A DNA stretch of 64,000 nucleotides from Zootoca vivipara (lineage: Eukaryota). The notes beneath the pieces are model-generated. The model worked only from the letters and a program-made list of their open reading frames with translations. It was not told the origin of the DNA and did no database searches. The stretch lies in the NCBI RefSeq assembly GCF_963506605.1, contig NC_083290.1:5642001-5706000 (forward strand), in the 5' to 3' direction. Numbering within the stretch: position 1 is the first letter of the stretch; each line of letters opens with the position of its first letter. Positions 7,811 to 55,972 of this stretch are shown here, piece by piece. A program made the translations under genes and the position numbers.

Positions 7811-8168
7811 GGTAAAGGTAAAGGTAAAGGGACCCCTGACCATTAGGTCCAGTCGTGACCGACTCTGGGGTTGCACGCTCATCTCGCATTACTGGCCGAG
7901 GGAGCCGGCGTATAGCTTCCAGGTCATGTGGCCAGCATGACAAAGCCGCTTCTGGCAAACCAGAGCAGCACATGGAAACACCGTTTACCTTCCCGCTGTA
8001 GCGGTTCCTATTTATCTACTTGCATTTTGACATGCTTTCGAACTGCTAGGTTGGCAGGAGCTGGGACCAAGCAACGGGAGCTCACCCCGTCACAGGGATT
8101 CGAACTGCCGACCTTCTGATCAGCAAGCCCTAGGCTCAGTGGTTTAACCACAGCGCCACCTGGGTCCC
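7811..8168 (-). mobile_element. Sauria SINE, full length, inserted in an L1 fragment
   Basis: 5' head GGGACCCAGGTGGCGCTGTGGTT, B-box GGTTCGAATCC-like motif, (ACCTTT)n tail and 12-bp TSD TATCTCTCCATA. Confidence 0.92.
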
Positions 8169-8352
8169 TATCTCTCCATACTCTCCATACTCTTTCAATT
8201 TATATTCCTCCCCAGTGACTGTTAGCAGGTATCTATATGAACTCCAATTTGTCTGTGTATAAATTTATTTCCTTGCAAGGGCTTCTGTTGGTGACAACCA
8301 CATAAGCGTTTTCCTTTCTAACAAGTGTTTGTATTTTCCCCATACCCTATAC

Positions 8353-23819: not shown

Positions 23820-25040
23820 TGTTAGGTTCTTATAAGCTAAAGGGCCTCTGGGAGATGCAGAAATGAGACCAGAGAAAAGGAAAAACTCATATGCGAAATG
23901 ACAAAATGAAGCTCCTCATTCAAATTCCAAATGGTTGTGGTGTGCAGGGAGGGGGGGGAGTGCTGAGGGGGGGGAATCAGTTCAGATGACGGACTGGAGG
24001 ACAAGCCACAAATCAATTGCAACTGCTTTGTTTAGTGCTAAAAACTCAAACTGCAGTGATTAGAAAACACATTAGTGTTCATCAATTAGTAGCCGAGCAT
24101 TTGGCTTGAATTATTCATGGGGAAATGACTTACACACAAGACTCTGTTAGTGTGTTGTCAGGAAAACCTCTGAAGGGGCCAACAGAACCAGGCGCCACTG
24201 TGTATCGACGGCACCGATCCAGCCAGGAAGCCCGATTAACCTCTGAGATGCCTCAGTTGATGTACTTACCCTATTAATGCTAATGGAGGTGCTACCACTT
24301 TTTTAAAAAGAAGAAGAAGAAAAAGTCGGAGCCAGCCAGGCTTCATCAAGGGAAAAGTCTTTAGGTTTTTAAAGTCTTTTAGCAATAGACATATCCTGTC
24401 ATTTGTGTGTCTTGGTGTCTTATCCCTCACCCCCACCTCCAACCTTTTAAAGCTCCCCCAACAAATGGGAAGGAATAAAATCCTTAAACAACTGGCATGC
24501 CAACAATTTCTTGGAAAACACACACATACACTCCAAGCAACCAGATGCAATATGCACTGCCTCAGTAGGCCTATTGACGTGATCAGCTGTCTAAGGGTAC
24601 CGTAGCAACCCTAGAAATCCCCGCAGCCTCTGGTGTCATGGTGTTAGAACCAGGCTGCTTTTGTACAAGGCCTGGACTGAGAATTCACACAAGCTGCTGG
24701 GAATCGCAGGTGGGGAGAGCGATGCTGCTTTCAAGTGCTACATGTAGGCTTCTCGTGGGGGCATCTGGTGGCCACTGTGAGAACAGGATGCTGGACTAGG
24801 TAGAACTTTTGCCTGATCCATCAGTCAGGACCTTCTTGCTGAGGCTTCACACTATCACTCAGCGGCCCATCGTTGCCTAAGACACGAGTACCATCTCTGG
24901 CGGGAAGGGTATTTTCACAACACCCAGTCCCATAATAAGCTGAACCAATAGGATAAAGGGGGCTCTATTACCTCAAACAGAGCAGGGGAACCTGTGGCCC
25001 TCCAGAAGTTGGAGTTCTCATTAGCCCCACTCAGCATGGC

Positions 25041-25468
25041 TGTCAGGGGACCTTCCTACAGGGAACCTCCCCCCATCCTGCTGACCAACACTTCGCCCAG
25101 TGAGTGCAGCAGCAGTAGGTCAGGTGGGACGAATTAGGAAGTTAGCAGGATGGAGGAGGCAAGACTCAGTGATGTGGGAGAGCCCTTCAGCCGCCTTGAC
25201 CAAGAGGTGGAGGGGAACAGGCAGCCCTTTCCGGCGCCCAAATTAAGGCACGCCACTAAACGTAAGGTCGGGAGGAGGCGTTTCGGGGTGCCCAAGCTCT
25301 TATGCTGGTCACGCAACAGGAAACGCCCACTCCCAGATTCTGCGAGTGACTAGGAGGTCATGTTTTCTGCTATCTCTGCACTGTAAATATTATGCACAAT
25401 AAAACCGTTAAAGACAAGCACAGACTTGGGCATCTTTCCTCGAGAGTAGCCGCAACAACACCATTACA
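25041..25468 (+). mobile_element. Solo LTR (Gypsy/ERV-like), copy A, inserted inside an old hAT MITE
   Basis: TG...CA termini, exact 5-bp TSD ATGGC and AATAAA at 25398-25403. Homologous to 34876-35343. Confidence 0.85.
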
Positions 25469-27552
25469 ATGGCCAATGGTCAGGGATGATGGGAGATGCA
25501 GTCTGGAAACATCTGGAGAACAAGAGCTCCCACCCACACCTAGTCTGCCCATTCGCCTCTAGTGCCCAATTATTTCCTCAGTTCCCTCTAAGATAAGTAC
25601 ATTCATTGGACTGAGTGAGAAGAACCAGTTTATTGGCTCCACCCTTTAAGCTCCCAGATTTAACCATTTAATTCGGGCGTGGGAAACCTGTAGCTCTCCA
25701 GGTGTTGCTGGACTCCAACTCCTATCAGCTTGAGTTGGAACAGCCAGTGTTCGGAGATGATGGAATATGTAGTTCAACACGATCTGGAGGGCCACAGATT
25801 CCCCAGCCCTGATCTCTGATAAAAGGGGCCTAAAAAGGAACACTTGAATTCTTCAAGGTTCTTCTAGGGAAGGGGGGGGGAGATCCCTTTCCTACACACA
25901 CATACACTACCATTTTCGACAAGACATTAATCACTACCGTTTTATAATCCACAAGCGATTAAACAAACGTCTGTAATTACGAGCAGATGCAATACTCCAG
26001 GCACAGGAAAGGAACTGCATTATAAACGCACAGTAAATTTTACATAGAGAGAGAGAGATATGATATAATCAAAGAGCAGGTTAGAGAGAGAGAGCTTCAT
26101 TTAATTTATTTATGCAGACGTAAGATGCCTTGTTACTGGAGGCATACAAGCACATTGCAGGGCGTACAAGAACATTACAACTCAATCCTTTCCCCACACC
26201 CAAGTATCAAATGCATTCAGTACAACCATAGACTGGAATTAAAAGGAAGCTTTTTTGGCCAAGAACAGCAGCTTTGTGTCGTCTTTTCTTATCTTCCTCC
26301 AGTAACATCTAGTAACTTAAAGCATGTGACACAGCACCATAATGCAAAGAGATTGGCCATCATGCTTCACAAGGTGTTGTTTGCAGAGGGCAAGGAAACA
26401 TGGAACGACGTGGTGACATCGGATCATATGCTTTGTTTCGATAGGCATTACTAGAGGAAGCAACAAAAGGCTACCCCTTGCGGTGGTGGCGCCCTGGTCA
26501 GGAGCTGCTGTCTGTTCCCACATCTGGCAAACAGGGTCACTGTGGCTTCTCAAGGGAGACTCAAGAACTAGCAACAACGCCACGATCTGGGAAGCAAGGT
26601 CGCTACAGCTCAGGAATGTGTCAAGCACAGTTGAACGCTCCCCTATACACACAGGGGAGAAAGGTGATTCAATGTGAGTTTAAAGGAGAACCTACAAAAT
26701 TTGCACCTTCCGAAACATTATGCAAGCAGAAAAAAGGCATCCTTCAAAACCTGCTCTACTCCAAATTCTGCAATGCAGTTCTTCTGCAAAGTCATATGCA
26801 CAAAAAAACGCATATCACAGGAAGATAACATACAAAATGCATTATATTAGTGGAAATTGCTTTGCAGAAATATTAATATTGGGCAAATTTGCATACAAAA
26901 TGTGTGTATTAGGAGAAATTTGCATGAAAAAGCTGATGGATTTTCATGAGAATTTTTTATAAAAAAAAATCACAAACCGATGTGGAATGTGGAGAAGTGA
27001 AGAATGGAAAAATGAGAAATGGAGAGAAGTTGATTGTGTATAAGTGGGGGGGGTGCCTGTATTGTGGCTGCTCTGCTATTATTATCTTTCAAACTAACTG
27101 TTTTCTGTGAGCTACTTTAAGCACAAGGTATTTGTGGAAAACTGAGTATATAAATGAACTATGATTAATCGATTAAATATATGACCCCTGAGTAGCTTGA
27201 GTCCAGGATTAGACCATGGGTTAGTCAGTGAGCCCATGCGCAATGCTCCTAGTTGTCCCTCGTTCCAAAGAAGCCTGACAGGACTCCACTAGAAGTCAGG
27301 CATTTCATGTGACTGATCTCATGCTGTGGAGCACTCTTCATCAGCGATTCTGCAGGCATCCTTGCTGTTAACCTTCAGACGTATCCTAAGGACTTTTCTA
27401 TGCCCACAGGCCTCTTCAGTTTTCTTTTTTAGATGAGCCACTCATTCCTGTAGTTATCTGGTAGTGCTCTGCAATATCTTACATTGCCAACTGCCTTGAC
27501 ATTGAATGTGAGTGGACAGTATGTAAATACTTCAGTAAATGAATAAATAAAC

Positions 27553-34875: not shown

Positions 34876-35343
34876 TGTCAGGGGATTGTTGCGGCTACTC
34901 TCAGGTAAAGACGCTCCAGTCCGCTCTGTCTTTCAGAGTTTTATTGTGAATATTATTTACAGTGCAGAGATATCAGAAAACATGACTGCCTAGTCCGATT
35001 CAGAACCCGGCAATGGCTGCTTACGGCTCTTCGGCCAGCATAAAAGTCTGGGCACCCCAAGGTGCCTCCCCCTAGCCCTGCTTGTGGGCGCGCGCCTCAA
35101 TTCGGGCGCCAGAAGGGGCTGCGTTCCTTCTCCCGTCCTTTGGTTGGAGCGTTGCAGAGGCTCCGGCACCTCGCTGCGCTGTCCTTCCCCCTCTGGCCAG
35201 CTGGCTCTGACATGTCTGAGAGCCCTCTCTCCACCCCGCTCCATTCCTCATTCCCTCCTCCTGACCCGCTGCTAGTGCTGTCACTGGGCGAAGTGCTGGT
35301 CAAGATGACTGGAGGAGGGTCCCTGTAAGGAGTCCCCCTGACA
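34876..35343 (-). mobile_element. Solo LTR (Gypsy/ERV-like), copy B of the same family
   Basis: TGTCAGGGG inverted termini at both ends, TSD GTATG/GTCTG and minus-strand AATAAA at 34940-34945. Colinear with copy A. Confidence 0.85.
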
Positions 35344-50061: not shown

Positions 50062-50487
50062 GAGAGCACATATAGTGGCTCAGATGCCGGATTTGGGGGA
50101 TGGGGGAGAGATCAGATTTGCAGCCCAACAGCAGTTCAGTGCTTCCACATAGCTTCCTGCAGCTCCCCATACTAACAAAGCTTGCATCAATTGCATTTTT
50201 TAAAGAAAGGATTCAAAATGCAGACTAAATTAAGCAAAGTAAGAGAAACTATAACTATTCAAGCTGCACAGTTTTATGCGTTTTGAAAAATATGGTATTA
50301 TCATTATGAAGTTTACAAACCAACATGACACCAAGACATGGCTTCTGGAGATTTGGGTTGAAACTGCACATTATGAACTTTGGGGCCCGCATCAGAGTGG
50401 GGGCTTAGGGGCAGAGATCAAGGGCCCTGCAGTGCTTGGCAGCGTGAGCAGGAGTGGGCCCACATGAAAGAGGTGCAGTTGATCATA

Positions 50488-50842
50488 AAGGTAAAGGTAA
50501 AGGGACCCCTGACCATTAGGTCCAGTCGTGACCGACTCTGGGGTTGCACGCTCATCTCGCATTATTGGCCAAGGGAGCCAGCGTATAGCTTCCAGGTCAT
50601 GTGGCCAGCATGACAAAGCCGCTTCTGGCAAACCAGAGCAGCACATGGAAACGCCGTTTACCTTCCCGCTGTAGCGGTGCCTATTTATCTACTTGCATTT
50701 TGACGTGCTTTCGAACTGCTAGGTTGGCAGGAGCTGGGACCAAGCAACGGGAGCTCACCCCGTCACAGGGATTCGAACCGCCGACCTTCTGATCAGCGAG
50801 CCCTAGGCTCAGTGGTTTAGCCCACAGCGCCACCTGGGTCCC
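50488..50842 (-). mobile_element. Sauria SINE, full length
   Basis: Nearly identical to 7811-8168. TSD GCAGTTGATCATA/GCAGATGATCATA. Confidence 0.92.
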
Positions 50843-52226: not shown

Positions 52227-52578
52227 CTCTTGAGGCTGGGTCCTGCTTCCTGGTTTCCCACAGACATCTGGTTGGCTGTTATGGGAACAGGGGGCTGGAC
52301 TACAGTAGATGGTCCATTGACCTGATTCAGCAGGCTCTTCTTATGTTCTTCTGTTAACCTGCAGCCGGAGTATGTATGGGGGCCCATACATTAAAGTCAT
52401 TAAACAAACAAAATCCCATACATATATTAAAGTCACCAAAAAACAAACAATTCCCTGCACAATTGCAAACATCTTTTGGAGAAGAGCTGAAAGGCTAGTA
52501 GGTATCCCTGTGATAGATATGTTTTCCATGTGTGTATAGGAACAAAGGATTGTAACAAACACAGTTTTACTCAGAGTA

Positions 52579-52933
52579 AGGTAAAGGTAAAGGGACCCCT
52601 GACCATTAGGTCCAGTCGTGACCGACTCTGGGGTTGCAGCACTCATCTCGTGTTATTGGCCAAGGGAGCCGGCGTACAGCTTCCAGGTCATGTGGCCAGC
52701 AAGACAAAGCTGCTTCTGGTGAACCAGAGCAGCACACGGAAACGGCGTTTACCTTCCTGCTGTAGTGGTACCTATTTATCTACTTGCACTTTGCCGTGCT
52801 TTCAAACTGCTAGATTGGCAGGAGCTGGGACCGAGCAACGGGAGCTCACCCTGTTGCGGGGATTCGAACTGCCGACCTTCTGATCGGCAACCCCTAGGCT
52901 CTGTGGTTTAACCCACAGCACCACCCACATCCC
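52579..52933 (-). mobile_element. Sauria SINE, full length
   Basis: Same family. 12-bp TSD TTACTCAGAGTA. Interrupts an older palindromic repeat. Confidence 0.92.
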
Positions 52934-55771: not shown

Positions 55772-55972
55772 AGGTAAAGGTAAAGGGGCCCCTGACCATC
55801 AGGTCCAGTCATGTCCGACTCTGGGGTTGGGGCGCTCATCTCGCTCTATCGGCCGAGGGAGCCAGCGTTTGTCCACAGACAGCTTCCGGGTCATGTGGGG
55901 ATTCGAACCGCCGACCTTCTGATCAGCAAGCCGTAGGCTCTGTGGTTTAACCCACAGCGCCACCTGGGTCCC
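55772..55972 (-). mobile_element. Sauria SINE with an internal deletion
   Basis: Head and tail are present, but the middle ~170 bp is missing at the junction tcatgtgg|ggattcgaacc. Confidence 0.88.

Follow-up and report, generated by a model that had tools for sequence, protein, structure and literature searches.

A reading frame within solo LTRs of Zootoca vivipara, almost certainly the C-terminal end of a Tf1/sushi-type chromovirus Pol

The U3 region lies at the 3' end of element RNA and can overlap protein-coding sequence, as in HIV nef and MMTV sag, which are independent genes, each with its own start. Ty1 integrase has a C-terminal NLS; Ty1 is a Copia element, and this signal is not known to be LTR-encoded. 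HIV integrase uses LEDGF/HRP2 as its chromatin tether. In plant CRM group A and certain other beet chromoviruses, the Pol frame itself is described as extending into the 3' LTR and closing there on a terminal motif that is conserved (PMC3059260, PMC3605345). The features described for the Tf1/sushi group include self-priming, by a PBS that pairs with the LTR of the element itself (10.1101/2022.12.06.519325). Vertebrate sushi elements with a Pol tail of this kind are not described in the paper listings and abstract openings searched, and the accessible parts of PMC3601003, PMC8149907 and 10.1101/2021.07.27.453949 describe neither such a tail nor a TND-interacting motif (TIM).

The window analysed here is a 64,000-nucleotide stretch of Zootoca vivipara DNA. 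It holds two solo LTRs of a Tf1/sushi-type chromovirus, A and B, which lack an internal region and carry the frame that is our subject. Their features are as follows.

25041-25468, + strand: solo LTR A of a Tf1/sushi-type chromovirus, 428 nt, with TG..CA ends
25036-25040 (left) and 25469-25473 (right), + strand: 5-bp target-site duplication ATGGC, flanking LTR A on both sides
25042-25353, + strand: dead copy of what are almost certainly the C-terminal 103 codons of Pol/integrase, with a Pro/Ser-rich start, one 18-codon unit and a basic end
25225-25335, + strand: end motif of A, comprising Pro-x-Pro-x-Leu-Arg, an Arg/Lys cluster, P-x-LLCW and a few basic residues (from alignment A6 and dN/dS)
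25354-25468, + strand: non-coding end of LTR A, with a TGTAAATA box, AATAAA at 25398-25403 and AGTAGCC at 25445-25451
34876-35343, - strand: solo LTR B, 468 nt (family mode 481 nt), target site CAGAC/CATAC
34990-35342, - strand: dead, frameshifted copy of the same Pol tail in B, from a family with two 18-codon units
24986-25520, no strand assigned: palindromic MITE-like host repeat with LTR A inserted mid-repeat, its arms flanking the LTR (from repeat comparison)

A sequence-only reading of the window had placed A and B at these coordinates, with the termini and translations we obtain, and had pronounced both local copies dead; all of this stands. The frame of A opens at LTR nucleotide 2, is broken by an in-frame TAG at 25135-25137 and ends at a final TAG at 25351-25353. 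That of B runs from LTR nucleotide 2 to a TAG at 34990-34992 (- strand) and is shifted mid-way by a deletion, B being shorter than the 481-nt mode of its family. Open copies of the B family have a tail of 121 codons with two 18-codon units, and A and B differ in length by exactly 18 codons. This 18-codon (54-nt) unit varies in copy number in the LTR-coded tail, with one in A and two in B (compared among LTRs A, B, L073, L077, L080 and L081). The AGTAGCC of A is probably a self-primer, which would place it near the transcript 5' end.

The palindromic repeat that surrounds A also hosts solo LTRs centrally at two other loci (L009 and L010). A preference for inserting into it was considered and set aside, as 3 of 54 sites (query included) against 4 of 432 controls are too few. 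Elsewhere in the window lie copies of a repeat of about 350 nt (7813-8169, 50486-50842, 52577-52933 and 55772-55972; two are 98% identical), SINE-like and presumably Sauria SINE.

First-look candidates for relatives in this genome number 2163 for A, the best 40 of these at 89-100%, and 2572 for B. For each family 40 candidates were scored and 30 loci fetched, and full-length LTR copies could be extracted from 28 of the 30 A loci and 26 of the 30 B loci. TG..CA ends are present in 27 of 28 A-like and 23 of 26 B-like copies, and at least four of five target-site bases match in 25/28 and 20/26, respectively. Because target sites match in most extracted copies, nearly all of them are solo LTRs. 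The frame is open from LTR nucleotide 2 to the shared stop in 12 of the 28 A-like and 6 of the 26 B-like copies. RNA reads cover most of the coding part of A at a depth of 0-10 (three runs, 85% likeness). Two loci are worth recording in their own right: a solo LTR of a third subfamily, with its frame fully open, lies 0.9 kb from an A-type copy (L017:2843-3262, oriented), and an array of tandem units of about 160 nt precedes an A-type 3' LTR (L076:5612-8314).

The sequence-only reading had argued from A and B alone that the frame evolves as coding sequence, and the four multi-nucleotide synonymous swaps it quoted are all visible in the two copies. Among 28 A-like and 26 B-like real copies, fixed differences between the families number 22, 24 and 33 at codon positions 1, 2 and 3 (104 columns each; Fisher p = 0.045), and the non-coding LTR end has fewer than any codon position (13/111). 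When 11 open A copies (a twelfth, with a damaged 5' end, was dropped) are compared with 6 open B copies, net dN/dS is 0.48 (bootstrap 0.28-0.81). The remaining sense frames give 1.21 and 0.91; the antisense frame with common third positions gives 0.49, as expected. The pattern thus exceeds chance, as had been claimed, but its strength was overstated: weighting for transitions and CpG raises dN/dS to 0.63-0.77, and for this reason the A/B pair alone suggests only modest constraint and is not decisive. A signal of this kind could come from chance together with transition/CpG bias in non-coding LTR DNA: transition weighting removes part of it, and the codon-position test reaches only p = 0.045. 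It is the young relatives of A and B that decide the matter.

In the A and B families themselves, the passage from Pol into the LTR survives in fragments. A pattern combining the PPT with the LTR start gave 12 matches; the nine junctions fetched are decayed, with pieces of RT, integrase, SH3_Tf2-1 and chromodomain upstream. At junctions of the TGTCAG type, to which A and B belong, the chromodomain is open in frame into the LTR in 3 of 12, and in none of the 12 is the element open from chromodomain to final stop. L084 has 314 open codons ahead of its LTR. Pfam finds RT-to-chromodomain pieces in the A/B-related elements L074, L079 and L081, and the integrase pieces of the first two, which are B-like, are 69-74% identical to a young element. 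Continuity with Pol in families A and B is thus probable, judging from partial frames and from sister families.

The young sister clade was located by a protein search with one such upstream piece, and 20 elements were fetched, selected for long frames. Their LTR pairs are 98.8-100% identical (20/20). In all 20, a frame of 984-1400 aa that comprises RT, RNase H, integrase, SH3 and chromodomain crosses the PPT and continues inside the 3' LTR, in register with A and B. It reaches an L(L/W)CW end about 100 aa into the LTR in 15 elements; the remaining five have a frame shift within the tail. In one full young Pol (L120), Pfam recognizes protease, RVT_1, RNase H, H2C2, rve, SH3_Tf2-1 and Chromo, and no family in the LTR-coded part. 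Gag, which has a CCHC motif, overlaps pol in the -1 frame. Pol runs about 225 aa beyond the chromodomain, the last 100 or so within the LTR, and the coding part takes up 70-74% of the young LTRs, with the stop about 45-55 nt ahead of AATAAA. Across elements and database proteins the tail measures from about 100 to about 220 aa, the LTR boundary of the database proteins being placed from protein only. The hidden frame is almost certainly the last 100-120 or so codons of the pol gene of a lizard Tf1/sushi chromovirus, and not a separate gene. Of the two options in the sequence-only reading, a long C-terminal extension of integrase is thus borne out by full-length elements, and an accessory gene is not needed.

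A separate accessory protein of the nef or sag kind, translated from a start of its own or from a spliced RNA, would also lie in U3, as those genes do, and RNA depth over the LTR does exceed that over much of pol in X16 and X17; solo LTRs explain that excess. The chance that such a protein is encoded is nonetheless very slim. The frame is uninterrupted with pol, no Met is conserved near the tail start (in eight young LTRs the first Met is absent or lies at codon 48 or 78), and no splice joints are listed over the young family in four RNA runs. Reads from many copies, mainly of one strand, span pol and tail of this family. Piles of read starts near AATAAA were considered as a poly(A) site and rejected, as their positions (7392 and 25397) disagree and may reflect internal priming.

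The young clade has undergone a recent burst, with dozens of copies that retain open pol frames of 1379-1380 aa (L112-L131 and others). At L195, an LTR follows a pol end and precedes a gag-like start, as in tandem elements with one common LTR; the self-primer and PBS of this locus differ from those of other families at matching positions, and their pairing is kept.

The LTR-coded tail is under purifying selection, and the strong signal comes from the young sister subfamilies. Among 10 representatives of the 14 Pols longer than 1200 aa with an intact end, tail dN/dS is 0.24 (0.16-0.35), or 0.29-0.33 after transition/CpG correction, against 1.19 and 1.75 in the other frames. The corrected values, together with the continuity of the frame in 20 of 20 elements, rule out chance and base-composition bias as the source of the frame; we consider that explanation scarcely conceivable. 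Constraint is uneven: dN/dS is 0.14 in the end motif and 0.31 in the Ser-rich middle, with RT at 0.09 and the chromodomain at 0.08. The end motif is also conserved in older families. In an alignment of 12 copies from old and young families (A6), its P, P, R, P, C and W are invariant, although 19 of the 20 young elements give no blastn match to A or B. The motif therefore survives where the LTR DNA no longer aligns.

One alternative is a tail that is translated but has no specific job. Selection would then keep it open and soluble and nothing more, for instance to place the stop near the polyadenylation signal, or the frame would be a by-product of promoter elements in U3. The low-complexity, length-variable and relaxed middle (dN/dS 0.31; 0.5-0.77 between A and B), the stop about 45-55 nt ahead of AATAAA and the frameshifts in 5 of 20 young copies all fit this idea. 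We nevertheless think it improbable. The dN/dS of 0.14 in the end motif and the invariance of P, R, P, C and W between families too diverged for their LTR DNA to align speak against it, and synonymous sites are as free in the tail as in the upstream linker (dS 0.53 and 0.66), which argues against constraint at the DNA level. A control family in the same genome (L132-L142) manages without any such extension.

A working tail remains the preferred reading. Pfam has no match to the tail, the end motif or the repeats described below except a stray UvrD_C_2 in 1 of 37 sequences, and a PDB search with the end motif gave nothing significant (best E 0.48). Beyond the motif and the repeats, PDB returned chromodomains only. 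Searching 1.84 billion proteins with a profile gave 511 matches at E up to 0.001, mostly chromodomains. Four divergent proteins among them (P0001, P0006, P0009 and P0043) finish with a basic/LL(C/N)W motif, and the close relatives that are named come from Podarcis and Zootoca. A word-index protein search with the full-length Pol tail found no match, and one with the P0001 tail found P0156 only; a search of the lizard genome for a P0009-like family gave, besides matches to the chromodomain, a single longer one that is weak.

The chromodomain is the only part to which AlphaFold gives a fold (mean pLDDT 49.7); if the tail has a function, it would act through short motifs. We slightly favor the view that the Arg/Lys-rich end coded by the LTR serves nuclear import or binds nucleosomes or DNA. 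A classical NLS is Lys-based, unlike the basic cluster of family B, which is almost all Arg, and any role for the end motif would be a guess from composition and position. Taken jointly, the identity of the frame as a Pol tail and a role of that tail in targeting or import seem likely to us.

Tail-bearing elements form one clade (support 100/99 and 100/100) in trees of SH3 plus chromodomain, in which 23 of 38 and 21 of 40 candidates were kept, the rest being lost to stops or pattern misses, and fish database proteins, not GyDB references, served as outgroup. In the chromodomain of this clade, the first and third cage aromatics are missing from 16 of 16 sequences displayed, so that it is not of group I, which has a methyl-lysine cage of three aromatics. 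The aromatics are kept in the three fish sequences displayed and in the control family L132; over a broader set, the other sushi-like family of this genome and four fish elements keep them. In plants, chromodomains with this pattern of loss are described as group II (PMC3605345). The control family L132-L142, with its canonical chromodomain, is open to a stop just after this domain in 5 of 11 copies, and the stop lies 14 codons ahead of the LTR in both copies with frame and PPT intact.

A degenerate chromodomain and a conserved motif at the Pol end, within the 3' LTR, are also what a centromere-targeting counterpart of the plant CR motif would present. An Arg nine residues ahead of the conserved Trp loosely resembles CENP-C-type nucleosome motifs, and this spacing would favor such a role. 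We hold this to be very unlikely: the young copies are spread over the full length of chromosomes (among the matches listed for C1, from 0.6 to 91 Mb in one search and as far as 135 Mb in another), the end motif matches nothing in PDB or Pfam, and the chromodomain is still present upstream, unlike in CRM group A.

A second element of the Pol extension, apart from the basic end, lies upstream of the LTR. Between chromodomain and PPT, in the same frame, are one to three repeats of the form hydrophobic-x-x-hydrophobic-Phe, an acidic Ser/Thr linker of 8-9 residues, and FxGF. They occur in L084, L089, L105, L120, L185 and others, and in P0001, P0015 and P0156, of which the last two are named as Podarcis proteins. 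Forty distinct repeats were listed, all with linkers of 8-9 residues, by a search pattern that itself demanded F, F, G and F; the helix often starts with Trp. Two repeats are present in 14 of 14 young Pols, at a dN/dS of 0.08 compared with 0.25 around them, and none of 20,000 shuffles gave two. AlphaFold places short helical turns, at low confidence, on both WxxxF segments. The D-W-x-x-(I/V) part also bears some resemblance to a LIR.

This layout is that of the TIM. As described, a TIM consists of a helix, an acidic linker and FxGF in a disordered region, the linker being 8-16 aa long and acidic with Ser/Thr (PMC9987994), and FxGF is essential for binding to LEDGF and HRP2 (PMC9987994, 10.1101/624023, PMC7835958). 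In the lizard genome, two host zf-4CXXC_R1 genes show the same pattern, with three motifs between them (for example LADIFNTPSDDEDFLGF) and one chance match in 90 kb. The pattern occurs twice in one gene and once in the other, at L213:9020 (+), L212:3092 (+) and L209 (-); we assume the two-motif gene to be CDCA7L-like and the one-motif gene CDCA7-like. With a profile of the element repeats, the CDCA7L-like and CDCA7-like motifs rank first and second of 4384 frames, at E values of only 0.16 and 0.66, and the third host motif falls outside the top 12. Among PDB matches to the profile at E up to 10 there is no TIM peptide, and the 20 kb upstream of the TND exon of IWS1 contain no TIM of that gene, but one intron-like chance match instead. 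The paper listings and abstract openings searched report no TIM in a retrotransposon. Docking of the FxGF repeats on the TND of LEDGF/HRP2 is a prediction that we hold to be slightly less likely than not.

These features can be assembled into a mechanism. Ribosomes making Gag-Pol, by way of the -1 gag/pol overlap, would read on into U3, which reverse transcription would copy to both element ends. Recombination between LTRs would then leave thousands of solo LTRs, each with a start-less, dead copy of the tail. In the living element, the disordered tail is likely to be the nuclear-import or chromatin-gripping end of integrase. The clade appears to have lost two of three cage aromatics and to have gained, behind the chromodomain, both the FxGF repeats and an LTR-coded basic end. 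More speculatively, and with somewhat more doubt than conviction, we suggest that it gave up a chromodomain that reads histones in exchange for a disordered integrase tail in two parts, in which multivalent TIM mimics would act on LEDGF/HRP2 and the LTR-encoded basic/LLCW end would serve nuclear entry or nucleosome contact, steering insertion to H3K36me3 gene bodies.

A Pol end in the LTR accounts for thousands of solo LTRs in this genome that look protein-coding, and LTR frames of this kind risk being mis-called as genes. If the FxGF repeats do bind LEDGF/HRP2, a vertebrate retrotransposon and the lentiviruses would have converged on one tether by different means: the element would use the same host tether as HIV integrase, gripped as host proteins grip it. 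Insertion-site choice of a vertebrate Gypsy element would then be testable with a 30-residue peptide and the young insertions in the genome.

Set beside known systems, the lizard element shares with Tf1/sushi chromoviruses (sushi-ichi and relatives) a CCHC gag, a -1 gag/pol overlap, the order PR-RT-RH-IN-SH3-chromodomain, TG..CA LTRs, a 5-bp target duplication and a PBS complementary to the 3' part of the LTR. A PBS of 7-8 nt, GGCTACT(T), pairs with LTR nt 393-402 in five of eight young elements; the match is imperfect in two, and in one the 3' LTR was read. In families A and B, neither of two pattern searches located a 5' LTR with PBS, and the AGTAGCC common to the LTRs suggests that they too may be self-primed. 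The element departs from the Tf1/sushi group in its chromodomain, where two cage aromatics (the first and third) are missing, and in the 225 or so residues of Pol beyond it.

The sequence-only reading had cited nef and sag as precedents. The lizard frame resembles them in being protein coding within U3 and differs in being the end of Pol. The closest precedent, missed there, is the CR motif of plant CRM in the 3' LTR; the FxGF repeats, upstream of the LTR, were out of its sight. As in CRM group A, the Pol frame extends into the 3' LTR, a likeness of layout; in CRM the CR motif takes the place of the chromodomain, tRNA-Met serves as primer and new copies insert at centromeres, whereas here the chromodomain is present upstream of the PPT, self-priming seems to be used and the copies lie scattered along contigs. 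The lizard element thus matches CRM in layout but is not a member, and the Pol-into-LTR layout of plant centromeric elements is found, with a different motif, in a vertebrate chromovirus lineage as well. A basic cluster at the far C-terminus recalls the NLS of Ty1 integrase, which is set apart by description as that of a Copia element. The FxGF repeats share with the TIM/IBM of JPO2/CDCA7L, IWS1 and MLL1, read by LEDGF and HRP2, a disordered layout of hydrophobic helix, acidic linker and FxGF; unlike in those host proteins, the lizard motif belongs to a retrotransposon integrase and occurs there in one to three copies. What appears new here is the loss of cage aromatics combined with one to three TIM-like FxGF repeats, which closely resemble a motif of the host CDCA7L-like protein.
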